From: an uncultured Thiotrichaceae bacterium
Lineage (GTDB): Bacteria; Pseudomonadota; Gammaproteobacteria; SZUA-229
Assembly: GCA_964646145.1 (NCBI GenBank)
Contig: CAZYCY010000001.1
Span: 1 to 32,959, forward strand
Length of the DNA: 32,959 nt
Direction of reading: 5' to 3'
In this document: one piece after another, positions 400 through 17,583 of the stretch
How positions within the stretch are numbered: position 1 is the first letter of the stretch
Layout: each line of letters begins with the position of its first letter
Notes under the pieces: generated by a model
Seen by the model: only the letters and a program-made list of their open reading frames with translations
Told to the model about the DNA's origin: nothing
Databases searched by the model: none
Program-made: the position numbers and the translations under genes

Positions 400-558
400 A
401 TGGCAAGACTAGCGAGAGTAATATTACTCAATTTTTCGCATCACATAATTCAACGTGGAAATAGAAGACAGGATATTTTCTTTAAAGCAGGGGGCCATGA
501 GTGTTATCTTGAACTATTGAAAGAGTGGAGTAAAAAAGAGGAAATGGAGATGTTCTGA
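400..558 (+). pseudogene. 52-aa N-terminal stub of an IS200/IS605-type (COG1943, RAYT-like) Y1 transposase
   Basis: My own translation gives MARLARVILLNFSHHIIQRGNRRQDIFFKAGGHECYLELLKEW.... It matches the conserved N-terminus (..HHIIQRGNnRQ.IFF..eDY..YL.lL) of this family. It stops before the HUH and catalytic Tyr motifs. An 8-bp stem hairpin agcataac/gttatgct lies at 364..391, just upstream. Confidence 0.6.
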
Positions 559-933
559 ATCGTGCCACTTAATTACATAATCATAATGATCCGAAAGCTT
601 TTTAATTGATGCTAATAAATAATAAACATTATTGGATGAGGCGCGAAACCAGTCGATTAATTTGCCATCTGAATCATCGGATATAACGATGTCCAAGTTT
701 TTAATGCTTGTGCCCGATATGCAGCCACTCGGATTAGCCGCAGTGATAAACTGCCGCAATCCACATTTCGCTTTATCCGTCAATTCAAAATAATCCGACA
801 GTGATTGTTGAAAATCACCGTCAATTAACAGGACATGTTGTCCCATGTCGGCAAGAATGCCGCCAATATTAGCAGCGATAGAGGTCTTACCGACACCGCC
901 TTTGGTTGATACGATACCAAATACTTTAGCCAT
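514..933 (-). pseudogene. Truncated ParA/Soj-family partition ATPase
   Basis: Deviant Walker A KGGVGKTS and LLIDGDFQ are present. Homology ends after ..HYDYVI, where the Walker B/DTPP block should follow. The 139-aa ORF compares with about 210-260 aa for intact ParA. Its tail overlaps the transposase stub. Confidence 0.7.
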
Positions 934-3482: not shown

Positions 3483-3831
3483 CTGCGGTAATCAATTATT
3501 GATAAAACTATTCTACAACTAATGTAAAAATTGTCATACTGAAAAATTAGAAAGGGAACTACGCCATTAAACTCGGATTACTTATAAGAGCCAATAATTT
3601 TAATCTGGCAGCAGAGACATTGTGCTGTAAAATAAGACCATGGGAAACTTCTTCAGCATCAGCCGTCAGCACGAGTCCGCACATGCGGTAATAAACAATT
3701 GTGTACAATAACTCGAAACCAGCCCTGCCGAGGTGAATTTTGGCTTCCTCTATGCCACTCGCAGTATGCTGTGAAGAATGAAACCCTCAACGATTAATCA
3801 GAGATTCGCTAAAATATAAAAGGAGATGCAA

Positions 3832-4005
3832 ATGAAGACCATCATTAAATCAATCATCGTAGTATTGCTAACGACTCTGTCAATAACAGGCTGTTCCAGC
3901 AGCCCCGCACCGTTTAATGATCCATACAACCAGGCTGATTCTCAGAGAGATAGGTCGAAGCAAGCACAGCATGAATTGTCCACAGAAACATCCCGAGAGA
4001 GGTAG
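3832..4005 (+). CDS. Small (57-aa) lipoprotein, below the ORF-track cutoff
   Basis: My own translation gives MKTIIKSIIVVLLTTLSITGCSSSP.... It has a hydrophobic signal plus lipobox L-S-I-T-G-C. SD AAGGAG lies 7 nt upstream of the ATG. Confidence 0.55.
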   Translation: MKTIIKSIIVVLLTTLSITGCSSSPAPFNDPYNQADSQRDRSKQAQHELSTETSRER

Positions 4006-4135
4006 TGAAACACTAGCCCCCGAAGCAGGGCAATGGCATTCACTTAACCCATCTTTCGATTTAGCAGAAAGCAATTATATAAAAAAAACAAATAGTTACT
4101 AAATTTATGGAGTCGGAGTTGGCACTACAGATTCC

Positions 4136-4270
4136 ATTGTTCCCACGCTGCTCCCGCGTAGGAATACAACCACTGACGCTCTGCGTCTCGTTACATGCAA
4201 AAAACACACAACATAAGCGATTCTTGACGCGGAGCGTCTGAAAATTCATTCCCACGCAGAGCGTGGGAAT
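4136..4270. repeat. Cluster of four REP-like hairpins (A-B...B-A arrangement)
   Basis: Hairpins: ttcccacgct/cgcgtaggaa (4140..4164, imperfect), gacgc-tct-gcgtc (4175..4187), gacgc-gga-gcgtc (4226..4238), attcccacgc-aga-gcgtgggaat (4248..4270, perfect 10-bp stem). Confidence 0.55.
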
Positions 4271-4409
4271 GATAAATCAGTGAGTTATATGAGGTGTTTT
4301 ATTTTTTGTTTTTGTTGGGTATGTGAATGTCATTGCTTGCCGGGACGGGAGTCTCACCCGCTGGAATTATCGACCTTGCTCGCCGCACACCCCAATTATC
4401 TCCTAGTTT

Positions 4410-4439
4410 CTGATACTTGCCCCACGCCTTTTATATAAT
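4410..4439 (+). promoter_or_regulatory. Candidate sigma70 promoter for the plus-strand trio
   Basis: CTGATA (4410..4415), 18-nt spacer, perfect TATAAT (4434..4439), about 60 nt upstream of the 4500 ATG. The -35 element is weak. Confidence 0.25.
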
Positions 4440-4499
4440 GCCGGTAACAAGCTCACAAGCCTTGCAACTTTCCTTGTTTTTCAATAAATTAACAAGATT

Positions 4500-6392
4500 A
4501 TGGACTTTAGTGAATATAAAGCACTCGTCACCTCAATACCTTGCGGGAAAAAACTACCCGACTCTATTTATATTCACGAATCCGCAATTGACATCCTGCC
4601 TAGACAACTAGGTGCTCATTTCGCACGTGTAATAATAGATCTCGATTTAGATGATAAAGATTGGAATATCCTTAAATTCTTTAAGCGAGACCATAAAGTT
4701 GCACTGTTAAATTATCCTGGCTTCTTTGATGACAGTTACCCTGCACTGTATACAAGCTATACAATTGATCTTGAAAAGAAAACCTTTAGAAAAGCTAACT
4801 ACAATAAATCTGACAATCCGCCAATTCTGCACAGAAAAGAAACATTTCTAAAACCTGACCATCCGCTTGTTGCAGAATTTATAGAAATAACGCAGGAAGG
4901 TGAAGCTATAGGTCTCTATGAAAAAACAAGCCGAATTGGCTTTAAACAAAATTGGGAAAGGTTAATAAAATCTAAAGGATACTTTCTTGATAAACATGGT
5001 CGATTAAAACCATTAACTGAGAAACCGTTAGCTCAAACAAAACCATCAGATTTAAATGGTGATGTAGAACGACATAAAACAGCTATTGACCGTAATCAGC
5101 TATCACAGCCTATGCAGGCATTGACCAGGCATAATTATTTAAATGATGATTATAGTGTTCTCGATTATGGCTGTGGTAAGGGTGATGATGTTAGGGAATT
5201 AAAGGCACATGGAATTGATGTCACTGGCTGGGACCCTGTTCATAATCCCAACGAAGAATACTCTAACCGAGATATAGTGAATCTCGGCTTTGTGTTAAAT
5301 GTAATTGAAGACCGACAGGAACGGACAGAAACACTTATCAATGCATGGAAACATGCGGATAAAATTTTAGTTGTGGCGGTTATGGTTGCAGGTGAAAACG
5401 TCATTAGTCAATTTACACCATACAAAGATGGCGTTATAACCAGCAGAAATACATTTCAAAAATACTACTCTCAAGGTGAAATCCGTTACTACATCGAGAA
5501 TTCACTTGATGAAACGGCTATTGCAGTAGGCCAGGGTGTTTTTCTGATATTTAAAGACAAGCTCGAAGAACAAGCCTTTTTATCAGAACGTCAGCATATC
5601 AAACGTGATTGGTCACAAAAAATACAGCGCCAACTAGCACTTAAACCTAAAGCAATCAGAAAAGATGTCATTGATAAACATATCGAACTATTTACTGACT
5701 ACTGGGAAACCTCACTTGAATTAGGACGAATACCAGCAAATAATGAATTTGAATTCTCTGATCAAATACGCCGCATCTGTGGCTCACATAACAAAGCCCA
5801 CCAGGCATTACTTAAACATTTTGGTGAAGAAGTATTTATTGAATCCAAAGAAAAACGTAGAGAAGATCTCATCGTCTATTTTGCCTTAAGTCTTTTTGAA
5901 AAAAGGAAACCTCAAAGTAAAATGCCAGAAAATCTAAAACGAGATATCAAAGCTTTTTTTTCTTCATATCAACAGGCATTAGAAGAAGCACGAGAAATAT
6001 TATTCTCTGTGGGCAACCCAGTAACAATTAGTGAGGCGTGCAATGTTGCTTATAAAACACTAGGCTGTGGTCACATGGAAGATAGTCATAGCTTTACGTT
6101 TCATAAAGACAATTTAGGCGACCTTCCACCGGTACTTCGCATATATGTTGGATGCGCCACGCAACTATATGGCGATATCGATAATTTTCAACTTATTAAA
6201 GTACATATAAGATCTGGAAAGGTTAGCTTAATGCGGTATGATGATTGGTCAAAAAATGAACCACTACTCCTTGAGCGTATAAAAATCAAACTTAGAGAAC
6301 TAGATATTGATTTTTTCGAATACACAGGTAAGTATTTACCTCCACCATTAACTAACAAGTCATCATTTTTAAGTGGCGCATCAGAAACCTAA
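4500..6392 (+). CDS. DNA-phosphorothioation-associated putative methyltransferase-like protein (630 aa, three-part architecture)
   Basis: Central class-I SAM-binding motif VLDYGCGKGDDV with a downstream DIVNLGFVLNVIED block. The N-terminal region (PPILHRKETFLKPDHP...GLYEKT) is as I remember for the TIGRFAM dnd-related methyltransferase family. A ~270-aa C-terminal extension has unknown function. Confidence 0.7.
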   Translation: MDFSEYKALVTSIPCGKKLPDSIYIHESAIDILPRQLGAHFARVIIDLDLDDKDWNILKFFKRDHKVALLNYPGFFDDSYPALYTSYTIDLEKKTFRKANYNKSDNPPILHRKETFLKPDHPLVAEFIEITQEGEAIGLYEKTSRIGFKQNWERLIKSKGYFLDKHGRLKPLTEKPLAQTKPSDLNGDVERHKTAIDRNQLSQPMQALTRHNYLNDDYSVLDYGCGKGDDVRELKAHGIDVTGWDPVHNPNEEYSNRDIVNLGFVLNVIEDRQERTETLINAWKHADKILVVAVMVAGENVISQFTPYKDGVITSRNTFQKYYSQGEIRYYIENSLDETAIAVGQGVFLIFKDKLEEQAFLSERQHIKRDWSQKIQRQLALKPKAIRKDVIDKHIELFTDYWETSLELGRIPANNEFEFSDQIRRICGSHNKAHQALLKHFGEEVFIESKEKRREDLIVYFALSLFEKRKPQSKMPENLKRDIKAFFSSYQQALEEAREILFSVGNPVTISEACNVAYKTLGCGHMEDSHSFTFHKDNLGDLPPVLRIYVGCATQLYGDIDNFQLIKVHIRSGKVSLMRYDDWSKNEPLLLERIKIKLRELDIDFFEYTGKYLPPPLTNKSSFLSGASET

Positions 6393-6402
6393 GGAACCTA
6401 AT

Positions 6403-7224
6403 ATGAATAGCAATGGAACAGCCACACCTAAAAATGTCAAAGTAGGTATGCATGTTGAAATTAACCCTCAAACGGACCGTACAAGAAAAAAAATAGCCCC
6501 AGGGATAATATCAGAAATTTTAACTAAATCAAATAATCACCCTCATGGTGTATTAGTTCTACTTGAATCTGGTGAGAAAGGCAGAGTAAAAGCGATACTT
6601 GACCAGAATGGTAAAAACCAACATGCTGAAAACAAAACTGATCTAAAGGAAGAAAAAAACACCACTACTCTTAAAGAATATATAGCTGAAGGAGAAAATC
6701 ATCATGTTGAATTTAAATCTGGTGCTTTATGGAGCACTAAGTTTACAAATAATGATATAAAGAAGTACAAACCTCAATCAAATGAACTTCATGCATATGG
6801 TCAAAGCACGTCAAAGATTATAATTTCTAAAACACTTGCAGGATTTTTAAACACAGATGGTGGTACATTAATAATTGGGTTAAAAGAAAATAAAAATAAT
6901 AATAAAGACGAAGTTATTGGTATTGAAGTGGAGTTCGATAATTTGAAAGATCAATGCCAGGATGGCTATAGAAGAATGTTAGTTGATTTAATTAAAGACT
7001 ACTTCCCTTCTGATGTTTTCAACCACCTTAATCAATACCTACAAATTAGGTTCGAAAAAGTAAGTGGTAAAGTTATCTGTGGTGTTACTGCTTCTAGATC
7101 TGATCAGAGAGTATTTCTGAAACTTAAAAATGCTGATCATTTCTACATTAGAACAGATGCTTCTACTAGGGAACTGCATGGAGAAGAAATTCTTGATTAC
7201 TGTTTAAAACGATTTAATAAATAA
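6403..7224 (+). CDS. YwbE-like (DUF2196) N-terminal domain fused to an AlbA_2 (Schlafen-type) nucleic-acid-binding domain
   Basis: N-terminus GMHVEINPQTDRTRKKIAPGIISEILTKSNNHPHGVLVLLESGEKGRVKAIL matches the YwbE pattern. C-terminus has EGENHHVEFKSG and LAGFLNTDGGTLIIGL, the AlbA_2 signature. I place the start at ATG 6403 (SD AAGGA at 6391..6395) rather than the track's GTG 6373. Confidence 0.7.
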   Translation: MNSNGTATPKNVKVGMHVEINPQTDRTRKKIAPGIISEILTKSNNHPHGVLVLLESGEKGRVKAILDQNGKNQHAENKTDLKEEKNTTTLKEYIAEGENHHVEFKSGALWSTKFTNNDIKKYKPQSNELHAYGQSTSKIIISKTLAGFLNTDGGTLIIGLKENKNNNKDEVIGIEVEFDNLKDQCQDGYRRMLVDLIKDYFPSDVFNHLNQYLQIRFEKVSGKVICGVTASRSDQRVFLKLKNADHFYIRTDASTRELHGEEILDYCLKRFNK

Positions 7225-7273
7225 TATTTTATATTTTTACTACTAAAGCAGTCCGAGAATACTAGAGAAGCAT

Positions 7274-8260
7274 ATGTTATACAGAAACGGTGAAAATCTA
7301 AAAGAAGAGCTCATAAGATTTTTATCTAATAAAAAAAATGTAACTATTTTTTCACCCTATATTAAAGCAACAACATTGAACAAGTTATTGGAATCCACAG
7401 GCTTTAATTGCGAACAAATTATTGTACGATGGGAACCTATGGACCTAGCTCTAGGGTCGTCAGATATAGAAGTTTATAAAATATGTAAAGAGAATAACAT
7501 TGCCTTGTACATGAATAATCGTATACATCTCAAACTCTTCACAAACAATTTTAATGATGCCTTATTAGGGTCAGCCAATATCTCAGAGCGTGCAATAAGT
7601 GACAACACAAATCATTTTAACTATGAGGTATGCACTTATGTTCAATCCATTGATAGAGATGATCGTTTATATCTTCATAAAATAATTCATGAAAGTATTT
7701 TAGTAACAGATGATATTTACGATGCTATTGAAGCTCAAATTCCTGATATTTCTCCAGATATAAAAAATAAAAAACTTAAACTTCCAGCATCTACTAACGC
7801 AACATCAGACTTTCTCATTACAAAGTTACCAATGATAGACAACCCTACTCTGTTTTGGGAATTGTATTCTGGAAAGTTAGATATTGAATCTGAAGAACAA
7901 GAAAACTGTCTCTGTCACGATCTATCACTTTATGAAATTAATACACTGGAATGTAATAAAAGAGAATTTTTTGAAATCTTATCCAGAAACTTCTTTAGCT
8001 TACCATTCATTAACGCTTTTTTAGAAGAAATAGATAAATCAAAACGTAACACAAGGAGTGGTGAAGCAAGGGATGGGTTACAATTTGGCGCTGTAAGGAA
8101 ATGGTTCTCTAATAATACGACTTCTGTACCATCACCCAGACCATTTGAATTAACAAAAAATGTACAAATACTTTATTCTTGGATAGAGCACTTATCTAAT
8201 GGGAAATACACCATCTCTATACCAGGATCGCATTCACAGATTATAAAAAAAACGTACTAG
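7274..8260 (+). CDS. Single-HKD phospholipase-D-superfamily (Nuc/BfiI-like) putative nuclease with an unknown C-terminal domain
   Basis: 328 aa. RIHLKLFTNNFNDALLGSANIS equals H-x-K-x4-(N instead of D)-x6-G-S-x-N. Residues ~150-328 carry no motif I recognise. Confidence 0.65.
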   Translation: MLYRNGENLKEELIRFLSNKKNVTIFSPYIKATTLNKLLESTGFNCEQIIVRWEPMDLALGSSDIEVYKICKENNIALYMNNRIHLKLFTNNFNDALLGSANISERAISDNTNHFNYEVCTYVQSIDRDDRLYLHKIIHESILVTDDIYDAIEAQIPDISPDIKNKKLKLPASTNATSDFLITKLPMIDNPTLFWELYSGKLDIESEEQENCLCHDLSLYEINTLECNKREFFEILSRNFFSLPFINAFLEEIDKSKRNTRSGEARDGLQFGAVRKWFSNNTTSVPSPRPFELTKNVQILYSWIEHLSNGKYTISIPGSHSQIIKKTY

Positions 8261-10032
8261 CAATCACCCACACCTAAAAAATCAGTTAAAACCTCACCCC
8301 ATCGCCGTCTAGCATTTTGGTATTGAGCCCTTGCGTTTGACGAACTTTCAGCTTCCATGCGAGACCACGCTGCTATAGCAAGCTCCAACATTCCTTGTTG
8401 CTCTTCACCAACCTCATGAATTATTTTCCCATAAAAAGGGTGATTCTTATTGATCTGAACTAATGTAAAACCATTCTGACTTGTCACATCAAAAAAAGCT
8501 GAGGAATCAAAAGCAAGTTCTTCAATTTTATATCTTAAACCACTTTGCAAGATTTCTTCTGGTGTAGGCATAGACTCTCTTTGTTTATCACCATGGCCAT
8601 GCTCAAGTACAGATTTTATATCATCTAATGTTGGTACCGTGTCGTCTGAAGATATAGGGTTCTTATCTGCTCTAGCAGAGTCTGCTTCAGTAGCTGCATT
8701 TTCAACAGAACTACCACCATCGCCTCCCTGCTTTTCTTTGGAAAAATTTGAGAAGTCGAGAAGATTCAATGGTTTTCTCAATGAATCAATTACAAAACCA
8801 ACCTTATTTATTATCTTAAAAAGATGTATTTTAGGATCATTATTAAATTTCAAATCATCCTCATATTCTCCTACTGACAAGCCTTCTCTTTCTGCTTCTT
8901 CATCTTTTTGTAAATTATAAAAATTCACAGCTGACTGTTTATTATTTAGCACACCGAAGACTATATCTAATGCTGGAGGAAATGACACTTCAATTGAAAT
9001 AAACCTACCTTTATCCCTAAGTTCAGTAATAAAAAATCCAGCATCCTTGAGCTCTAACTCTCTATTAGATCTAACAATTGACAGTCCAAAATTAGTCGCA
9101 GCGTGTTTTCCCCAGACAGTTCCTCCTGGTCTTTGCTTCGCTTCCTCCCTTATTCTTTTAAAAATTAATGGGTTAACTACAGAGCCTTTTATCTTCACTT
9201 CATGCATCCCATTATTAAATTCAATTTTAATGGTTTCTTCTTTTTCTAGATTGAAAAATGGCTCGTTTTCATAAGGATGTGGAAGCTTTGAAAGTGATGT
9301 ATTCGTTAAAAGATACATCGGGTCGTTTGCTTTAAACTTTTTAGGATTATCTTCTAGTTTATAAACATTATCAATTTCTAAAAATCGGTCGAACCATATA
9401 GTGGCATCGCCGCTGTCTAGGTAATATCTATACATGCGCCCTATTAACGCTTCAGAGTGCTTGTATATTGACGCGCTTGTTTTCCACTGTAAGCGATCTA
9501 AATTACTCCATAATATAAAAGTTCCACTTTTAGAAAGCTTATCTCCTAGCGTTTCCAAAATAGCAGAGGGAATTTCGTTTGTTTTTGGTTTTGGAATGCT
9601 TTCAAGGTTACCATTCATCATTTCATTAATATCTAGGTACGTATAGAAGATTTCGTCTACGTTTATCCACGACCACACTTCTACTTTTGTACATTGTGAT
9701 ATTGATGAATTTGGTAATCCCATGCCAAATTTACCCATACCTTCTTTATCTGTATGATTTTCTCCTGCACCAAACTCCAACGCTTTATAAAGCTGATCAG
9801 GACTCATTCCTGAGCCGTTATCTAGAATGCCTATTTTATCTATTAATTTTAATGCTCGTTGTTTATTAGCCTTTGATACAGTCTCATAACATATGAGTCT
9901 TACTATTTCTGCACCTGCTTGAATGCTATTATCGATCAACTCCGCTATTGCATATGCTGCATTTTTATAGCCATTATCACGTAATGATTCTATTACTACC
10001 TGACCACTTATAAATGGGCGTGAATTTGTCAT
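8257..10032 (-). CDS. GHKL-superfamily (HATPase_c_3 / MORC-like) ATPase
   Basis: 591 aa. N-box AELIDNSIQAGA, G1 box LDNGSGMS, G2 box GKFGMGLPNSS. It lies 20 nt downstream of the helicase gene on the same strand. Confidence 0.8.
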   Translation of the reverse strand: MTNSRPFISGQVVIESLRDNGYKNAAYAIAELIDNSIQAGAEIVRLICYETVSKANKQRALKLIDKIGILDNGSGMSPDQLYKALEFGAGENHTDKEGMGKFGMGLPNSSISQCTKVEVWSWINVDEIFYTYLDINEMMNGNLESIPKPKTNEIPSAILETLGDKLSKSGTFILWSNLDRLQWKTSASIYKHSEALIGRMYRYYLDSGDATIWFDRFLEIDNVYKLEDNPKKFKANDPMYLLTNTSLSKLPHPYENEPFFNLEKEETIKIEFNNGMHEVKIKGSVVNPLIFKRIREEAKQRPGGTVWGKHAATNFGLSIVRSNRELELKDAGFFITELRDKGRFISIEVSFPPALDIVFGVLNNKQSAVNFYNLQKDEEAEREGLSVGEYEDDLKFNNDPKIHLFKIINKVGFVIDSLRKPLNLLDFSNFSKEKQGGDGGSSVENAATEADSARADKNPISSDDTVPTLDDIKSVLEHGHGDKQRESMPTPEEILQSGLRYKIEELAFDSSAFFDVTSQNGFTLVQINKNHPFYGKIIHEVGEEQQGMLELAIAAWSRMEAESSSNARAQYQNARRRWGEVLTDFLGVGDC

Positions 10033-10052
10033 TTTTTATCCATATTATTCAA

Positions 10053-11663
10053 TTAAACTTCATTCCAAGATTGGTTCCAATATTCGAATGCATTACTTAA
10101 ATTCATAAACTCTGGAATATTATCTACAACTGTATATATATTACAACTATAATTGCCCCCACTCTCTTTTCCTCTCATAGCTCTCCCTACCATTTGAGAA
10201 TACAAAACAAGTGATGTTGTAGGCCTCCCAACAATTGCAACATTAGTAATTGGAGCGTCAAATCCTGCTGTTAGAACGCCATAATTAACAATGATTTTTA
10301 ACTTTCCATTTTTAAAGTCTGATATTTTTGATCTGCGCGATTCTGTCGTATCATATCGACTATCCAGCGAACTTGCAGGACATCCTAAACAGCATAAAGC
10401 AGCAGCTAATTCTCTTGAATTATCCACACTACATGCAAATATTATTATCGTACTACCATTATTATATTCCTTAATTGCTTGTTTAATGATACTTGAGTTT
10501 CTATCTTCGTTCTTCCCTAGTGTCTTTAACAAGCTAGCTTCATCTAGACCAGAAACACTCTCTCCTAAAGAAACCTGACCTTCATAATTAATTGGATAAA
10601 AACTGGGGTTAGCTAAATATTTATTTTCAATTAAATACCTAACAGGTGATTGATACCCTTTTACTTTCATAGTTACTTTGGTACGAGAAAATAGTTCAGA
10701 TAATTCATAATTCTCAGTGCCATCATCATTAAAGGTCCTACCTGGTGTTGCAGTTAAACCCAAAACAAATGCATTTTTTTCAGTGCCACTAGATAATTCA
10801 TCCAGTGTAGTTCTGTACGTGGGAGCTAGTGCTTTATGAGCCTCGTCAAATATTATTAAGGTAACATTGTTTTGTATTTTTTCAAATAAAAATTTTCTAT
10901 CTGTTTTTTTTAGGCTATGAATTCTTTGTAATCCTGCAACTAAAAAACCATTTTTTATTCCACTCAACGATTTTTTTGAGTCAGAAAAAAAAGAATAATT
11001 ATTTATATTTCTATTTCCAAGCTTACCCCAAGCAATATCAAACTCTTCGGATGCCTGTGTACACAATTCTTCTGAGTCAGCCAGCCAAATAACTAAACCG
11101 TCTTTATTACGCCTTAAATGCTCGCAGACCACATTAAGTGCTGTACGTGTTTTTCCTGCACCTGTAGGCAAATGAATTAAAGCTCGATTTGTTTTATCAC
11201 TATTAATTAAATCTATAGTCTTGTTCGAAACTTTAACCTGATAATCATACAGTGGGTAATCGGGAACAATTGGCTTTACATCAGAAATTGATACACTCGC
11301 TAAAGCAGCGGCATCCCACTGCTCACCCATACCCATTATCTGAGAGAATTTTTTCGTATAGTTTTTTGCTAATACTTTTAGACTTTCATATTTTTGCAGT
11401 TGTTCTATATTTGATAAATCCACATCTTTGTCAAATTCATAAAACACCTCATTGAGTTGCTGAATTGTCATTCGCGAAATGATCAAATTTCTGTATTCAC
11501 TATTTTTGATTAAGTCGATACCCACTGTTAATAAAACTGCAATACTTAAATTTCGAATGTCTAAGTTATTTTCAGTTATTTCTCTTGCAAATCTTAGAGT
11601 TTTCGAACCTAATATATTTCCAAGTTCCGCTTCGCTACAGTTTTCTAAAATATTTTTTATCAT
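10053..11663 (-). CDS. SF2 DEAH-box helicase (type III restriction Res-like core)
   Basis: 536 aa. Motif I HLPTGAGKTRTA, motif II IIFDEAHKA, motif III LTATPGR, motif VI QMVGRAMRG. Confidence 0.85.
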   Translation of the reverse strand: MIKNILENCSEAELGNILGSKTLRFAREITENNLDIRNLSIAVLLTVGIDLIKNSEYRNLIISRMTIQQLNEVFYEFDKDVDLSNIEQLQKYESLKVLAKNYTKKFSQIMGMGEQWDAAALASVSISDVKPIVPDYPLYDYQVKVSNKTIDLINSDKTNRALIHLPTGAGKTRTALNVVCEHLRRNKDGLVIWLADSEELCTQASEEFDIAWGKLGNRNINNYSFFSDSKKSLSGIKNGFLVAGLQRIHSLKKTDRKFLFEKIQNNVTLIIFDEAHKALAPTYRTTLDELSSGTEKNAFVLGLTATPGRTFNDDGTENYELSELFSRTKVTMKVKGYQSPVRYLIENKYLANPSFYPINYEGQVSLGESVSGLDEASLLKTLGKNEDRNSSIIKQAIKEYNNGSTIIIFACSVDNSRELAAALCCLGCPASSLDSRYDTTESRRSKISDFKNGKLKIIVNYGVLTAGFDAPITNVAIVGRPTTSLVLYSQMVGRAMRGKESGGNYSCNIYTVVDNIPEFMNLSNAFEYWNQSWNEV

Positions 11664-11683
11664 TATATTAGTGAATTAAGCCA

Positions 11684-12541
11684 TTATAAACTACAAATCA
11701 AACAAGCTTGATCTTCAGGGTCTTCATCATCTTCTTGATGCCTTAACACATCCTGCCATCTTTCAGTTTTTTTACTTGTTTTATTAATGTCTGTTTTCTC
11801 TCTCAACTCTGCTCTTTTAACAAGCTCATCTAAAGACCCTTGAGAGCTCCAGGTATACCCATGACCACCAAATTCCACCTCACCCTCTTTCCAGTCGAAT
11901 TTCGTTCGTATTTTATTCTCAAATTCTTTTGCTTTCTCAAATAATTCAGGATGGTTTCGTTTAAGACCTAACCATTCTTTTTGCTGTTGGAAAAAGCAGA
12001 AATAACAACCAGATCGTGATCGCCATTTATAGTATTTTGGAATGCCAACTGTATCTTCAAGCATCTGGAATATATCATCACGTACTAGACCATCTTCTAC
12101 AAAAGGGAAAACTGCTTTTATTGTTGGTTTTTGACTAATGTAACCTTCTCGATTTTCATCTGCACGTATGCCGACATAAGTAATAACAAAGTCATCCCCT
12201 ACAAATTCCTCAAAGGGTTTAATTTTCATCATTCGAGTACACCATCTTTGCTGTGGTGATGGCAAGTATTCATTATGAACCTTTAGCCAATGCTCAAATG
12301 GTTTTCCACTACTGAGTCTTATAATCTCTTTACCTAAATATGCTTCAAGCTTTGCTAGAAATTCATATACCTCATCTAATTCAGCGCCCGTATCAGTAAA
12401 GAAGTATTCAACCTTTTCATGAACGTCAGGATGTTGTTCTTTGATATAAATAGCTAAGGCTGCACTATCTTTACCACCAGATATTCCTAAAACATGTCGA
12501 TATTGATTATCGTTTATATACTTTTTATAATTCTGGCTCAT
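11684..12541 (-). CDS. sspD: SspD-like PP-loop ATP pyrophosphatase (PAPS-reductase family)
   Basis: 285 aa. PP-loop ISGGKDSAA. Cys pairs SGCYFCFF and C-terminal CLICSL. Its short length fits SspD rather than ~500-aa DndC. It follows sspC after 6 nt. Confidence 0.8.
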   Translation of the reverse strand: MSQNYKKYINDNQYRHVLGISGGKDSAALAIYIKEQHPDVHEKVEYFFTDTGAELDEVYEFLAKLEAYLGKEIIRLSSGKPFEHWLKVHNEYLPSPQQRWCTRMMKIKPFEEFVGDDFVITYVGIRADENREGYISQKPTIKAVFPFVEDGLVRDDIFQMLEDTVGIPKYYKWRSRSGCYFCFFQQQKEWLGLKRNHPELFEKAKEFENKIRTKFDWKEGEVEFGGHGYTWSSQGSLDELVKRAELREKTDINKTSKKTERWQDVLRHQEDDEDPEDQACLICSL

Positions 12542-12547
12542 ATCTTG

Positions 12548-15500
12548 TTACCTACTAACTAATGATTTTGATTGTAGTTTTTCAGGTTTATTTTTTTGAG
12601 TAACTTGTTCTCCCCTGTATTCAGTTAAAAACTTATTAACAGATTCTGCTAATACAGCCAGCATGATTTCTTTATCTGGAAGTTCTTTAAGTACGTCTGA
12701 TATGTCTTTATTAGCCTTATTTCTCAGCTTAATACTTTCTTGGTCTGCGATAGCAATTTCATCTTGAATTGCTCCACCCTTTTTAATGCTACGCAGCAAA
12801 TATACATCAAAGTCACCATTTTTCTTTATCGCACAATCTTTTTCATGTAGCCTAAGTTTTTCTAGATCAATTATACGTTGCGAAAAATCTGCTAAACGAT
12901 ATTCAGCTGTATCTTGATCGCTATCTAACCATTTTTTAGATGGCTTATTACCTAAGAACATAAGTATATTTTCGAACCATTCTTCATCTGTACTAGAGGA
13001 TTTAATTATTCGCATGATAAATGCACGCAAGCCTTGCATATCAATTGTGTAGTTTTCTAAACCATAACAATTTCCTGCCAGTCTTTTTCTAATATCTCCT
13101 AACGACAGCTTAGAATTTATGTTAAATGCATGTGCAATCAGCTCTTTTTGTTTATTTAAAAGATTGTGATATGAATCTTTTAACTCCTTCAGTGTTTCAG
13201 TCAAGGTTTGTGAAAACTCCTCCAGTTTATTGTTACTCAAGCTTGAATTAATAACATTGAAACCAAGTTTTTCTGGCAACTGTTCAAATAATAATATTTC
13301 AGGAGACTTCGCTAAATCAAAAGCGGCTCTTACTTTTATAGCTTTTTGAGATAACCCTCTTCTAGTCTTTTGTGTATATTCAGGTAACTTTCCCATAAAT
13401 ACTGCAAGTGGTCTGGCTAATTCCAGCAGAGTGCGTTTTTTGCTATCCCCATGTAAAACTTTTGAATATTGTTTAAATATTGAAGCGCGTAATCCAGTTA
13501 TTCGAAACCGCTGAATCTCAAACTCATCAGGCCGTTTAACAAAACGCTCAATCATCTCTTCAGTAAAATATGGTTTATACCTTCCTTGTTCGTAAACCGC
13601 GAGTTCGTGCTGATAGACTAAATAGGCTGTTATATAAAAAACGGGTAATAAACCGGCTTTAACACCATAGGGCGGCGCTAATAATTCGGCATTTAATTGG
13701 GTAAAAGATTTAGCTTGTTTTTCAGTGCTATCAAGAAACTCGTCAATACATTGCCAGACATGACGAAGATTTGATTTTTTATCTTTTCTACCATCTGTTG
13801 GTGGCGCACAAAGATTCCATGTTTCGTCGCCATCCGTTATTTTATCAATTATTAACTGATGCAAACCTGTTTCGCGTAATACAGATCGGTACATTGATTT
13901 TTCAGCGGGGAATTTTTCTATACCTAAATCTGCTTTTGTTGCATGGTTTTGCATTGCATATAACAGCTTGTTACGCGCAGCATTGGCTTGTGCAGAAGGT
14001 TTATCTCGGTTGATCAGTTCATTAAAGACTTTCGGCATTTTGTTATAGACTTTACCAAGAACGCTTGAAAGCATTTCTTGCATGGTTCGCTTACTGGTTA
14101 TTTCTAATTTTTTTCCGCTGTGATACCAAATGCTATCAGCGGGTGAATCGATCAAACTTTTTAATAGTTTACCTTCTGCTTGTTCTGCAGCCGTTAACCG
14201 ATCTTCAAATTCACGCTTAGCGACTGGGTCGCTATTGAGCTCCTGGCTATTTATTCTGACGCGATTTAACGCTATGGTTTCCGCTACGGCTTCCCTTAAC
14301 TGCGCTCCATTAAGACTTAAAGCGGTTATATCCAGATTTGAGAAATAGTTAATTACATCTGTATGAAATATTTTCTCGTCATCCTGGTCTGCCGCCAGGT
14401 AGAAGATGATGCGTGCATCTTTACTTTGTTTTTCTGTCGTTTTGTAATTTTTTGCATCAACAAAAACAGGCACAAAATACCTTAATGCACCTGTTTGAAT
14501 GGTGTATTTACGAGCAACAACTGGCAGCATGTTTTTGGCTGTATTCAATTCTGCTGCCAGGGAGAACTGACCGATATTATTTATTTCTTCCTGCAATGCC
14601 TCTTCTAGATCAAAATCACTGCCCTGCCATACGCGGTATTCGTTGTTAAAGCGTCGATAATTGATGATGGATTTATCTTGCAGTGCTTTGATTGCGTTCC
14701 TTGCTGTTATTTTCTTAGGTAAGCAGGTTTCCAGTATGGCTTTAGATGCTTTAAAACCACCTTTGCTACCGATAATATTTAGGATGCCAATGGTTTTGAG
14801 AATATTAACTTCGTCTTCGCATGCATCACCTAGACGCTCAATAGCGGTTACTACTTCTGCCCAGCGCCGATGGGTTAAATAGTCACCTAATACTGATGGT
14901 TGGTTAGTAATAAAATAATCGTAGATATGATGTGGGTAAACATAATCTCCAAAGTTATCCATCTCATGCAGCATATGCTGTAAGCCAAACTCTTCATGAC
15001 TACCAAGATAGCTAAATATGGTGCGCTCGTTTTGCGCTACTTTCTGGCAGAGTAATGGCAATATAAGCGCACTAACGGGATGCAATGGATAACAGTTTGA
15101 ATACAGTTCCACTGCCTCGTCAAATTTCAACGCACTGGGCATGGCTTGTTGTTTGACTAATACATCGACTACTTTTGTAGTTATATTTGTCAGCGTATTT
15201 TTTTGTTGTTTAGTAAGGTTAAATTCAAATGCTGCTGATACAACACGTAATATTTGTTCGGCAGATTCCAGAAAAGGCACTTCTTCAAAACGCCCCTGCA
15301 CTTTAGACCATTCATTTTTTAGATTTTCACCTAGACCTTTTGCGTATTGCTCAAATGATTGATGCAGTAGTACAAATAAGAAAAGATTAACCTTACTGCC
15401 TTTACAGGCATGTTCAGCAAGTGCCTGTAATAAATATATATCGTTAGCACCGTAATGGCGTGCTTCGTATTCTAAAAATTTGCCAAGTTCATCTATTACT

Positions 15501-16072
15501 AATAGTATGCCTTTGCAGTGTGTTTTTTCTAGAAGCAGTTGAAGTTTTATAAACAGTTGTATCAGTTCATTTGATGAAACATTACTTGTTGCAGCTTGCT
15601 TTATTTCTTTAATGATTTTTGGTTTTCTACTTGGTATGTTTTCCCAATATGCCTCTGCTGCATCGGCTAAACCTTTAACCAATCTCTTTGACAATGATTC
15701 AGGTGAACCAGTAATGAGAACTTTTAAATAGCCCTGATTTTTATTGGTTTGGTTGCAGAATTTTTTCGCTAATAATTCATCTGCCTTTTTTAGTACTTGC
15801 TGTGCTGCTTGCGAGCCTTCTTCAGAAGGGTTAGATAATAGTTGCGATAAAAATACTGAAAAAGAGGATTTACCTGAACCGTATGGGCCGATTAAAGACC
15901 AGGCTCTAGGTGATAGGCCAGTATTAAACGCATCAGACACACGTGCAAAGGTTCTAAGTGCCCTGGACGTAGGGATGTATGCATTAATAACATCAACTGA
16001 ACCAGCATCCCGTTCGAGGTTAATTGAACGAGTGTAGTGTGTATTGACTGTAACGAGATTATTTATGTTCAT
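12548..16072 (-). CDS. sspC: SspC-like large P-loop ATPase
   Basis: 1174 aa. Walker A GPYGSGKSS, Walker B LLVIDELGKF. Its start overlaps the sspB stop by 4 nt (ATGA type). Confidence 0.75.
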   Translation of the reverse strand: MNINNLVTVNTHYTRSINLERDAGSVDVINAYIPTSRALRTFARVSDAFNTGLSPRAWSLIGPYGSGKSSFSVFLSQLLSNPSEEGSQAAQQVLKKADELLAKKFCNQTNKNQGYLKVLITGSPESLSKRLVKGLADAAEAYWENIPSRKPKIIKEIKQAATSNVSSNELIQLFIKLQLLLEKTHCKGILLVIDELGKFLEYEARHYGANDIYLLQALAEHACKGSKVNLFLFVLLHQSFEQYAKGLGENLKNEWSKVQGRFEEVPFLESAEQILRVVSAAFEFNLTKQQKNTLTNITTKVVDVLVKQQAMPSALKFDEAVELYSNCYPLHPVSALILPLLCQKVAQNERTIFSYLGSHEEFGLQHMLHEMDNFGDYVYPHHIYDYFITNQPSVLGDYLTHRRWAEVVTAIERLGDACEDEVNILKTIGILNIIGSKGGFKASKAILETCLPKKITARNAIKALQDKSIINYRRFNNEYRVWQGSDFDLEEALQEEINNIGQFSLAAELNTAKNMLPVVARKYTIQTGALRYFVPVFVDAKNYKTTEKQSKDARIIFYLAADQDDEKIFHTDVINYFSNLDITALSLNGAQLREAVAETIALNRVRINSQELNSDPVAKREFEDRLTAAEQAEGKLLKSLIDSPADSIWYHSGKKLEITSKRTMQEMLSSVLGKVYNKMPKVFNELINRDKPSAQANAARNKLLYAMQNHATKADLGIEKFPAEKSMYRSVLRETGLHQLIIDKITDGDETWNLCAPPTDGRKDKKSNLRHVWQCIDEFLDSTEKQAKSFTQLNAELLAPPYGVKAGLLPVFYITAYLVYQHELAVYEQGRYKPYFTEEMIERFVKRPDEFEIQRFRITGLRASIFKQYSKVLHGDSKKRTLLELARPLAVFMGKLPEYTQKTRRGLSQKAIKVRAAFDLAKSPEILLFEQLPEKLGFNVINSSLSNNKLEEFSQTLTETLKELKDSYHNLLNKQKELIAHAFNINSKLSLGDIRKRLAGNCYGLENYTIDMQGLRAFIMRIIKSSSTDEEWFENILMFLGNKPSKKWLDSDQDTAEYRLADFSQRIIDLEKLRLHEKDCAIKKNGDFDVYLLRSIKKGGAIQDEIAIADQESIKLRNKANKDISDVLKELPDKEIMLAVLAESVNKFLTEYRGEQVTQKNKPEKLQSKSLVSR

Positions 16073-16995
16073 GCGGCTATACCTTTCTCTAAGTCCATAT
16101 AATATTTTTTAATATAAGATAGCGGTTCTATTTCATTGGTTCGATACAATTGATGTATGCCCGCTGTTTCTCGTATATCAAAATGTCCGGGGATATAATT
16201 CACCATTAATTCTAGTTTGGTAATTAAGTCTGTTTCCGTTAACCTGAAAACGGAACCTGGTGCTGCATAGTCGTTTCGGCTATACATGAGTTCTTCAATG
16301 GCTATGGTCATAATATTTCTCTGCTGCATTAATTGAGATACCGCAAAAGAAAATATTCCGACTGGCAAGCCTGATCTTGCTTCTGGTTTTGACTGGTATG
16401 TTCGAGCACTCGAAAACTGTGTGACCAGACCAAGTAAAGATAGTGGTGAGTCTAACGCTTCTTCCAACGCTATACGGGCGTTAGCTTTTGACTGCGTATA
16501 CATACGTGGCAGTAATAAGGCATCATTTTTAATGGTATTCGCTGAGGGCCGACGTTTTTCTACGACACGCTCTTTAATAAAGTCGATAAGTGCTGTTTGT
16601 AATTCTTCAGCGGTAAATTCTGGTTTGTGAAATTTATTAAAAAACCAAAACCACGATGTTGCCATTGCTGAGTTAGTGACTAATAACCAGTGTACTAACC
16701 AAATAGTCGCTTCATCTTCTAAATAAGGGTCTAAGCCAGTTTTTGCATCAAAGACTAAATTACCAATTGGTTCTGCAACCTCTGGTTTTTGAGAGCTTAT
16801 TAACTGGCATGCTCTTAACCAGTAGCGTATTGACGACACCATGTTACGACCGACTCCAAGCACAACCACAGAATCGTCATCTTCAAATACACCCGGTTTT
16901 TGTTTTAAGGCATGGAAACCTTTAGATAGCCAGCTATAGCGAAGTGCAAATGTTTCGTGCCGACCGAATGCAACGGTATCGCTTTTAAATTTCAT
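16069..16995 (-). CDS. sspB: SspB-like DUF4007 protein (PT-system nickase family)
   Basis: 308 aa. The N-terminus FGRHETFALRYSWLSKGF is the hallmark DUF4007 block. Its ATG directly abuts the stop of the upstream RHH gene (TAAATG). Confidence 0.8.
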   Translation of the reverse strand: MKFKSDTVAFGRHETFALRYSWLSKGFHALKQKPGVFEDDDSVVVLGVGRNMVSSIRYWLRACQLISSQKPEVAEPIGNLVFDAKTGLDPYLEDEATIWLVHWLLVTNSAMATSWFWFFNKFHKPEFTAEELQTALIDFIKERVVEKRRPSANTIKNDALLLPRMYTQSKANARIALEEALDSPLSLLGLVTQFSSARTYQSKPEARSGLPVGIFSFAVSQLMQQRNIMTIAIEELMYSRNDYAAPGSVFRLTETDLITKLELMVNYIPGHFDIRETAGIHQLYRTNEIEPLSYIKKYYMDLEKGIAA

Positions 16996-17190
16996 TTATC
17001 TTACCTTCCGTGTATTGCTATTATTATCTGGCAGCAAGCTCAGCTGAGTTTTGTCCTTTAAAAACCCGTCTGCATTGCTCATAAACCACTGCTTCATCGT
17101 GAGCTCTTCTTTTTCTAAAGCAGAATATAGCTCCTCTTTTAAGGCTGGGTCAACCTCAATGACTATGCGCCCACTTGTACCTTTAGCCAT
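16996..17190 (-). CDS. Ribbon-helix-helix (CopG/Arc/ParG-like) small DNA-binding protein, first gene of the ssp operon
   Basis: 64 aa. Beta strand GRIVIEV, helix PALKEELYSALEKE, then helix TMKQWFMSNADGFL. It is translationally coupled to sspB. Confidence 0.55.
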   Translation of the reverse strand: MAKGTSGRIVIEVDPALKEELYSALEKEELTMKQWFMSNADGFLKDKTQLSLLPDNNSNTRKVR

Positions 17191-17212
17191 TATTTTTGCC
17201 TACCTTTTATTG

Positions 17213-17254
17213 TGTTATGTTACATAGAATATGTCACATAACATTTATTGTCAA
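17213..17254 (-). promoter_or_regulatory. Sigma70 promoter with an overlapping palindromic operator for the RHH-ssp operon
   Basis: Minus strand: TTGACA (17254..17249), 17 nt, TATTCT (17231..17226). Imperfect 13-nt inverted repeat tgttatgttacat / atgtcacataaca (17213..17225 and 17231..17243) covers the spacer and -10. Confidence 0.55.
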
Positions 17255-17290: not shown

Positions 17291-17583
17291 GTAGCTTCTC
17301 AATAAGCAGGGGCTGCCCCAATGCCAGTAAGTTAAGAAGAATATAGCTCTTTTACTGTTATCTCGAACGAATGTGAGAGATCTTAATCCCCATACAATAA
17401 GATTTCTCCCTATGGTCGAGTAGTGGTACAGGGATGTACCGTTAATGAACCAGTAGTGGCACATGGATGTGGCGATTACGAACCAAAGGATGGAGAGGAT
17501 GGAGAGGATGGAGAGGATGGAGAGGATGGAAATGACAATACAGATTAGGCATTGGTGACAGCCCCGACTTATTGAGAAGCTAT
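17291..17583. mobile_element. Long (293-bp) member of the hairpin-MITE family
   Basis: ~35-nt imperfect terminal inverted repeats gtagcttctcaataagcaggggctgccccaatgcc / ggcattggtgacagccccgacttattgagaagctat. The interior has small hairpins (ggtacagggatgtacc, gtggcacatggatgtggc) and a 9-bp tandem repeat. Flanks (ttttaccg / atttcacc) are only a degenerate duplication. Confidence 0.6.
17487..17531. repeat. 9-bp tandem repeat AGGATGGAG x4 plus one variant (AGGATGGAA)
   Basis: Direct reading. It explains the artefactual SILSILSIL stretch in the minus-strand ORF 17285..17641. Confidence 0.9.

Follow-up and report, generated by a model that had tools for sequence, protein, structure and literature searches.

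Systems that place single-strand phosphorothioate (PT) marks on DNA with SspBCD have been described with two kinds of restriction partner, SspE in Vibrio cyclitrophicus FF75 as well as Escherichia coli 3234/A and SspFGH in Vibrio anguillarum FF-93. A 2025 review lists only three branches of PT restriction, namely dndFGH/sspFGH, sspE and pbeABCD (PMC12707154), and a paper that the Ssp laboratory published in May 2026 mentions, in the sections accessible to us, only SspE, Dnd and sspFGH (PMC13251355). In a survey of 2,678 sspBCD loci, 84% contained neither SspE nor SspFGH, and its authors asked in 2021 whether further partners exist (PMC8092258). Here we analyze a nine-gene island at positions 4500–17254 of a 32,959-nucleotide stretch (hereafter the window) from an uncultured Thiotrichaceae bacterium (assembly GCA_964646145.1, contig CAZYCY010000001.1). 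The island combines SspB, SspC and SspD with a superfamily 2 (SF2) helicase, a MORC-like GHKL ATPase and a phospholipase D (PLD)-family nuclease, which we refer to as the trio, and with three further genes: a putative methyltransferase of family TIGR04096, a DUF2196::AlbA_2 fusion and a 64-amino-acid protein.

A first-pass annotation of the same sequence had regarded this composition as non-canonical, but our data show that the trio beside SspBCD is common across many phyla and occurs in V. cyclitrophicus itself, and the island is an ordinary member of a large, already sequenced class of loci. The function of that class appears to be undescribed. Our search found no literature linking a GHKL/MORC ATPase and a helicase to phosphorothioation, subscription papers lying outside the search, and it still holds that the trio and the accessory genes are functionally uncharacterized. 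In the following sections, we consider the writer and its partners, their linkage across genomes, the readings this linkage permits, and the relation of the island to known systems.

The SspBCD writer and its three partner proteins

Profile searches placed three adjacent minus-strand genes in the SspB, SspC and SspD families, as the first-pass annotation had proposed. SspB (16069–16995, 308 aa) scored 291 bits against the PADLOC model and 266 bits over the full PF13182 (DUF4007) profile, and the sequence of the SspB crystal structures 6JUF/6LB9 matched it with an E value of 3e-29. SspC, a BrxC-like P-loop ATPase (12548–16072, 1174 aa), scored 1481 bits over PADLOC profile positions 1–1063 of 1064 and retains the Walker A motif GPYGSGKSS. 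SspD, a PP-loop/PAPS-reductase-family sulfurtransferase (11684–12541, 285 aa), scored 345 bits over positions 1–276 of 277, matched PF01507 and contains the SGGKDS motif. The three genes are contiguous from 16995 down to 11684 in the order B-C-D, with sspB and sspC sharing 4 nt and a 6-nt gap before sspD, and the motifs on which they had been recognized (FGRHETFALRYSWLSKGF, GPYGSGKSS, LLVIDELGKF and ISGGKDSAA) are all present in the translations of the nine-gene set. This homology suggests that SspB, SspC and SspD put single-strand PT marks on host DNA, with both the chemistry and the target motif presumed; in characterized systems the mark is C-ps-CA.

A tblastn search with an SspA/DndA-type protein found no SspA in the 33-kb window. 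Because sspA is absent there, SspBCD may take its sulfur from a housekeeping cysteine desulfurase, the host IscS. Dependence on host IscS in Ssp loci without sspA has been documented in V. anguillarum FF-93 (PMC8092258) and in E. coli 3234/A (PMC13251355). The absence of SspE was likewise borne out, with no PADLOC SspE match in the nine genes or in ten other open reading frames (ORFs) of the window; the same library recognized SspE in related loci at 709 bits. No other PADLOC defence proteins were found in the remaining window ORFs.

The domain labels given earlier to the partner proteins were also borne out: ResIII/Helicase_C for the helicase, HATPase_c_3 for the GHKL protein, PLD (by fold) for the nuclease, Methyltransf_23/TIGR04096 for the methyltransferase-like protein, and DUF2196 plus AlbA_2 for the fusion. 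The helicase (10053–11663, minus strand, 536 aa) carries ResIII, DEAD and Helicase_C domains, and its motifs I, II, III and VI are 98–100% conserved among 68 homologues. Its nearest solved sequences are RadD (6JDE) and then SauUSI (7CLG), and RadD is its best NCBIfam match too.

The GHKL protein (8257–10032, minus strand, 591 aa) matched HATPase_c_3 at 70 bits, and its profile picked out MORC2 and SMCHD1 in the PDB. Its AlphaFold2 model (mean predicted local distance difference test score, pLDDT, 77.7) had the MORC2-DNA complex 9CDJ and SMCHD1 6MW7 as top Foldseek matches, with Hsp90, MORC3/4 and the MutL N-terminal domain also among the matches (E values of 1e-13 to 1e-10). Across 81 homologues, residues E31, D34, N35 and D71 show no variation, and neither do the G-loops.

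The third partner (7274–8260, plus strand, 328 aa) is a PLD/HKD-family protein with a C-terminal helical domain, in which PLDc_2 is weak by sequence and confirmed by fold. Its AlphaFold2 model (pLDDT 86.6) matched SauUSI 7CLG, BfiI 2C1L, Nuc 1BYR, NucT and Zucchini at the top of the Foldseek ranking, and H85, K87, S100, N102 and E118 are invariant in 52 homologues. Catalytic residues are intact in all three partner enzymes.

We consider it probable that the island is a PT-based defence of restriction-modification (RM) type with four modules: the SspBCD writer, a restriction arm, an accessory operon and a regulator. The restriction arm would consist of the helicase and the MORC-like ATPase, co-transcribed with sspBCD, and the PLD-family nuclease, encoded convergently. 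Analogies are provided by SauUSI and PbeA, each a single chain with a PLD domain and a helicase, and by MORC DNA clamps: the arm would load on DNA, translocate with ATP and then nick or cleave DNA without the PT pattern. A more novel proposal, that the trio is a widespread, previously uncharacterized PT-coupled restriction machine in which an SF2 translocase is joined to a PLD nuclease by a MORC-type DNA clamp, with backbone sulfur being read, we regard as an even call; TIGR04096 and the DUF2196::AlbA_2 fusion often accompany the trio.

Linkage of the trio to SspBCD and the readings it permits

Relatives of the GHKL ATPase number more than 2,300 at E ≤ 1e-5, and a profile scan with one genome per species yielded at least 564 loci. 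ORFs were called and clustered in the best 80 of these, and the counts below refer to the 48 loci flanked by 8 kb or more on either side. Hosts come from Gammaproteobacteria, Alphaproteobacteria, Bacteroidota, Chloroflexota, many cyanobacteria and other groups, with Vibrio, Pseudoalteromonas, Psychrobacter and Colwellia among the genera. A helicase gene lies directly upstream of the GHKL gene in 44 loci and a PLD-family gene follows the GHKL gene in 35, while at least one of SspB, SspC and SspD is found within 10 kb in 41. SspA occurs in 33 loci (one representative scored 455 bits with PADLOC), TIGR04096 in 13 and SspE in 7. The commonest order is B-C-D-helicase-GHKL-PLD-(sspA), or else the writer is divergent from the trio. 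The PLD gene is present in 35 of the 41 loci with SspBCD and in none of the seven without (Fisher p 2e-5, uncorrected for phylogeny, several of the seven clearly representing one and the same insertion).

Some of these loci carry additional genes. Two helicase-GHKL pairs stand side by side with one SspBCD set in V. cholerae BI-5D (L032) and in Ruegeria (L163). A DndB-like (DGQHR) protein of ~420 aa with a ~170-aa partner was seen in seven loci (L010, L030, L043, L050, L060, L072 and L167), the pair often being placed between sspD and the helicase gene or after the PLD gene.

The species that gave Ssp its definition carries the same genes in its ssp locus. There, in both V. cyclitrophicus assemblies analyzed (L171 and L173), sspE is followed by sspD, sspC and sspB in the opposite orientation, then by genes for the helicase, the GHKL ATPase, a 585-aa protein and the PLD protein and by sspA, all oriented like sspE, and finally by genes for TIGR04096 and a 175-aa protein, oriented like sspD. 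The locus therefore holds seven of the nine gene families of the window, the DUF2196::AlbA_2 and ribbon-helix-helix-like genes being the two not found. Compared with its window counterpart, the helicase is 43% identical, the GHKL ATPase 45% and TIGR04096 49%. Assembly ATLT01 may be strain FF75 itself. Vibrio loci (L171 at 11865–13622, L173 and also L005) contain the extra protein of 563–585 aa, which has no Pfam match, between the GHKL and PLD genes.

Plasmids show a similar association. Among PLSDB plasmids, 98 carry an SspB homologue, 18 a homologue of the trio's GHKL ATPase and at least 14 both. On a Hymenobacter plasmid, PGAP annotates in succession a DUF4007 protein, a hypothetical protein, a PAPS reductase, a hypothetical protein, a DEAD/DEAH helicase, an ATP-binding protein and a phospholipase D family protein.

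These linkage data bear directly on an alternative that we consider unlikely, namely that two independent systems share the island, SspBCD being an orphan writer with an epigenetic or redox role and the trio a self-contained system of restriction, one without any reading of PT. In that case, the trio could be modification-dependent like the type IV enzyme SauUSI, or of MORC/Hma type. Consistent with two systems, the helicase-GHKL pair stands in seven of the 48 loci with no SspBCD in the vicinity, and SauUSI can be called the nearest solved relative of both the helicase and the PLD protein (though RadD ranks first for the helicase by sequence). Moreover, MORC-helicase-nuclease operons exist in RM contexts unrelated to PT (PMC2292703), and most sspBCD loci have been reported without a known restriction partner, orphan writers being considered possible (PMC8092258). 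However, co-localization in 85% of loci over many phyla, with an adjacency that survives many rearrangements, argues against independence, as do the 20-nt gaps and shared direction that tie the trio's minus-strand genes to sspD. The frequent position of sspA after the PLD gene places the trio inside the ssp locus, and the PLD gene is missing wherever SspBCD is absent.

The helicase, MutL-like GHKL protein and nuclease might instead maintain or repair PT-marked DNA, acting on SspB nicks or on oxidized PT sites. PT sites are chemically labile, RadD (the helicase's best NCBIfam and PDB match) is a repair helicase, and the GHKL fold also matches the MutL N-terminal domain. We nevertheless find repair improbable given the patchy, mobile distribution of the trio, its carriage on plasmids and the low GC content of the island, as well as its co-occurrence with SspE, DndB-like and other defence genes. 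The PLD fold is nearest to restriction nucleases, and characterized Ssp systems modify DNA without the trio (PMC8092258; PMC13251355). That the island is the sspBCD-sspFGH cassette, part of which the first-pass annotation had suggested it might be, is very improbable: three partner genes adjoin sspBCD and one has a P-loop, like SspF, but the partners have clear helicase, HATPase_c_3 and PLD domains, none of them FtsK/HerA-like, in disagreement with the published description of SspFGH (PMC8092258).

Several observations weigh against a PT-based restriction system in the form that we favour. Every functional step assigned to the trio is predicted from sequence, and the sequence fits both a nuclease that PT would block, as in DndFGH and SspFGH, and one that PT would license, as in SspE and Pbe. 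The confinement of the PLD gene to writer loci fits both modes and leans slightly towards a nuclease that needs self-protection. The seven helicase-GHKL pairs without SspBCD within 10 kb lie among housekeeping genes; the pair may thus be able to function with no PT writer beside it, or such pairs may be remnants. There is no host cysteine desulfurase gene within the window. No function is assigned to the C-terminal half of the PLD protein or to the first 135 aa of the helicase. TIGR04096 lacks the canonical DNA-methyltransferase motif IV, and in profile searches it resembled small-molecule methyltransferases in motif I only and otherwise no solved methyltransferase.

With these reservations, the linkage to SspBCD, the share of plasmids and the presence in the ssp locus of the prototype species make the trio a concrete candidate for a further branch of PT restriction. 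At least 14 of the 98 SspB plasmids carry the trio's GHKL ATPase, a rough and biased figure that can be compared with the 7% reported for SspE and likewise for SspFGH. If the more novel proposal of a PT-coupled machine is right, the trio would form a fourth branch beside DndFGH/SspFGH, SspE and PbeABCD. It would explain a sizeable share of 'orphan' sspBCD loci, and with them those genes of the V. cyclitrophicus ssp locus that have not been studied. MORC-family ATPases act in eukaryotic epigenetic silencing, and the trio would then offer a bacterial model of such an ATPase reading an epigenetic DNA mark, along with new enzymes that discriminate PT-DNA.

Accessory operon, putative regulator and setting of the island

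The first-pass annotation did not know two plus-strand genes, upstream of the PLD gene, from any characterized PT system; both recur in PT loci. The first (4500–6392, 630 aa) encodes a protein that matched Methyltransf_23 and scored 621.7 bits against NCBIfam TIGR04096, for which the curated cut-off is 150; the family is named 'DNA phosphorothioation-associated putative methyltransferase'. The S-adenosylmethionine (SAM) motif I, DYGCGKG, is present. N-terminal to it, the motif NPPILHRKE (residues 106–114, window 4815–4841) is invariant in 13 TIGR04096 homologues and is reminiscent of methyltransferase motif IV, but without its aromatic residue. In other loci the gene is paired with a variable small neighbour (cluster 15 in L014, L015, L017 and L021; cluster 13 in L005, L009, L011 and L018); these small neighbours are a 278-aa DUF6997 protein with a D...ExK-like motif and a protein of ~180–230 aa without a family match.

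The second gene encodes the DUF2196(YwbE)::AlbA_2 fusion (PF09962 plus PF04326 by profile search). Its longest ORF starts at 6373, and the ATG at 6403, also the start in public gene calls, is the likely true start, giving a 273-aa protein at 6403–7224. This architecture occurs in at least 115 clusters at 90% identity, and a HMMER scan of 1.84 billion representatives returned 34 matches at E ≤ 1e-30. The context of seven homologues on long contigs was examined, and each was in a PT island, six of them with SspABCD. Five of these six show the helicase, GHKL and PLD genes; the other (L170) shows GHKL and PLD only, and the contig stretch ends there. In the seventh context (L169), the fusion lies with DndBCDE, a PLD protein, a helicase of 634 aa and a ParB_N protein. 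Between the window and loci L163–L170, the fusion is 54–61% identical, versus 24–34% for the GHKL ATPase, helicase and SspC. A metagenome scan with the fusion alignment returned mostly AlbA_2-only proteins and one informative locus, L083. There (3653–10768), as in L169 (9012–15090), genes for a PLD protein, the fusion, a ~630-aa helicase, a ParB_N protein and one or two uncharacterized proteins form an operon, in differing order; no PT writer genes were visible in the stretch of L083 examined. These operons suggest that PT-linked restriction arms of more than one kind are served by the AlbA_2 fusion. The SAM-binding TIGR04096 protein and the fusion, a predicted nucleic-acid binder, may together constitute an accessory operon, recurrent in PT loci, that senses, regulates or adds a second mark.

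At the opposite end of the island, the 64-aa protein (16996–17190, minus strand) had been read as a ribbon-helix-helix (RHH) regulator heading the operon. Its position directly upstream of sspB was confirmed, and homologues with 47–78% identity hold the same position in four other loci (L002, L006, L027 and L049). The RHH label is unverified: no family match was significant, and RelB, the source of weak hints in its favour, fell below threshold (PDB profile E 0.49, Pfam RelB E 0.095). We therefore describe the protein as a putative RHH-type autoregulator. The candidate promoter and operator of the ssp operon (17213–17254, minus strand) comprise a -35 element TTGACA at 17254–17249, a 17-nt spacer, a -10 element TATTCT at 17231–17226, and the palindrome TGTTATGT-N15-ACATAACA at 17213–17243, which overlaps the -10 element. 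The palindrome pattern matched once in the window and never in 100 shuffles. A promoter and terminator scan gave counts no higher than in shuffled sequence, and this promoter was retained because comparative data back the site: the half-site ATGTTATGT lies within ~50 nt upstream of the small gene in the same four loci, usually as an inverted repeat. The palindrome and the conserved half-sites support an autoregulated promoter for the writer operon, and from this comparative evidence the 64-aa protein probably binds the palindrome over the -10 element to regulate its own operon.

ORF calling in the window recovered all nine ORFs at the positions given in the first-pass annotation. The six minus-strand genes are tightly packed, with gaps of 0, -4, 6, 20 and 20 nt, the stop of the 64-aa gene abutting the start of sspB. 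The two operons converge on a CTAG at 8257–8260 that contains the stop codons of both. Among the best 80 loci, this convergent split, with the TIGR04096, AlbA_2 and PLD genes facing the RHH-like gene, sspBCD, helicase and GHKL genes, is confined to the window, L001 and L002, and the inverted PLD gene alone also occurs in L007 and L013. Since the split is restricted to the closest relatives and the same genes are ordered otherwise elsewhere, the layout is a lineage-specific permutation and does not define the system.

The GC content of the island is 31–40%, versus 42–46% in the flanks, and horizontal acquisition is the probable reason for this difference. An aldo-keto reductase gene flanks the island on one side and mutS, NAD kinase and recN genes on the other; together with a GC content of about 44%, the mutS-nadK-recN genes suggest a gammaproteobacterial host. 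Searches for tRNA genes and Rfam elements, as possible signs of an integration site, found none in the window. Between the aldo-keto reductase gene and TIGR04096, ~1 kb (3483–4499) contains no convincing ORF. Farther upstream, a 124-nt direct repeat (139–262 and 2391–2514, 87% identical) encloses a ParA-like fragment (514–933, minus strand) and an integrase-like ORF (1085–2332, Phage_int_SAM_1 only), and the whole may be a small integrative element, or the repeat an att duplication. Between the island and mutS lie ~6 copies of a 9-bp tandem repeat (AGGATGGAG), at 17478–17535, enclosed by a 24-nt inverted repeat (17292–17315 and 17559–17582, 92% complementary).

Comparison with known systems

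Among the closest described systems is SspABCD-SspE of V. cyclitrophicus FF75 and E. coli 3234/A, which has the same writer, with homologous SspB, SspC and SspD in the same order, and whose V. cyclitrophicus locus holds the same trio and TIGR04096 beside sspE. The window differs in containing neither SspE (DUF262/DUF1524) nor SspA. Whereas SspE is a single PT-stimulated GTPase-HNH nickase, the presumed effector of the window would be an ATP-dependent machine of three proteins.

SspBCD-SspFGH of V. anguillarum FF-93 resembles the window in pairing an SspBCD writer with a cassette of three partner genes, and its sulfur donor is IscS. SspFGH damages DNA without PT, and the same mode is the one that we favour for the trio. 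SspF, SspG and SspH are reported to resemble no annotated genes, save that SspF has a Walker A motif and SspH an FtsK/SpoIIIE-like C-terminus (PMC8092258). The window partners carry ResIII/Helicase_C, HATPase_c_3 and PLD domains and no FtsK/HerA domain; identity with SspFGH (A1QU_04845-04855), compared by published description, was rejected on this domain content.

The DndCDEA-PbeABCD systems of haloarchaea and bacteria provide a parallel in domain logic. PbeA consists of a PLD domain and a ResIII/SF2 helicase and is paired with a large ATPase in PT-dependent defence (PMC6459918). The two domains fused in PbeA are separate proteins in the window, whose ATPase is GHKL/MORC-like, whereas PbeC is an SMC-like ABC ATPase, and whose writer is Ssp, not Dnd. 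PbeABCD itself was rejected with PADLOC, as the helicase matched the PbeA model only in part (85 bits, positions 197–437 of 672), the PLD protein had no PbeA match, and no PbeB, PbeC or PbeD was found among the nine proteins; the library did recognize PbeC elsewhere, with a score of 591 bits.

BREX type 4 also writes PT (PMC12914056). SspC, SspD and SspB have homologues in its BrxC (487 bits by PADLOC) and BrxP (45 and 24 bits), the Ssp models scoring far higher; the window has no PglZ and no BrxL, and its PAPS reductase and DUF4007 are separate proteins. BREX type 4 and Mza were set aside as partial or weak single-protein matches in PADLOC, and DISARM because only a marginal DrmC match to the PLD protein (E 8.6e-4, 17 bits) was found, with no DrmA or DrmB (DUF1998).

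The ATP-dependent type IV enzyme SauUSI (7CLG), the best structural match of the PLD protein, shares the logic of an SF2 motor driving a PLD nuclease. It is a single polypeptide with a C-terminal reader of modified cytosine, and has neither a GHKL partner nor a linked writer. The prokaryotic MORC/paraMORC RM operons predicted by Iyer, Abhiman and Aravind in 2008 combine a GHKL+S5 ATPase, an SF2 helicase and a nuclease, HKD nucleases included, in mobile islands (PMC2292703). They pair with DNA base methylases, and the terms 'phosphorothio' and 'dnd' do not occur in the text of that study (PMC2292703). The window shares the paraMORC traits of a GHKL ATPase with a transducer (S5-like) domain and intact motifs and of an adjacent SF2 helicase and nuclease. 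TIGR04096, which has SAM motif I but no canonical DNA-methyltransferase motif IV and is present in only 13 of the 48 loci, is a possible counterpart of their base methylase, and a PT writer takes the modification role.

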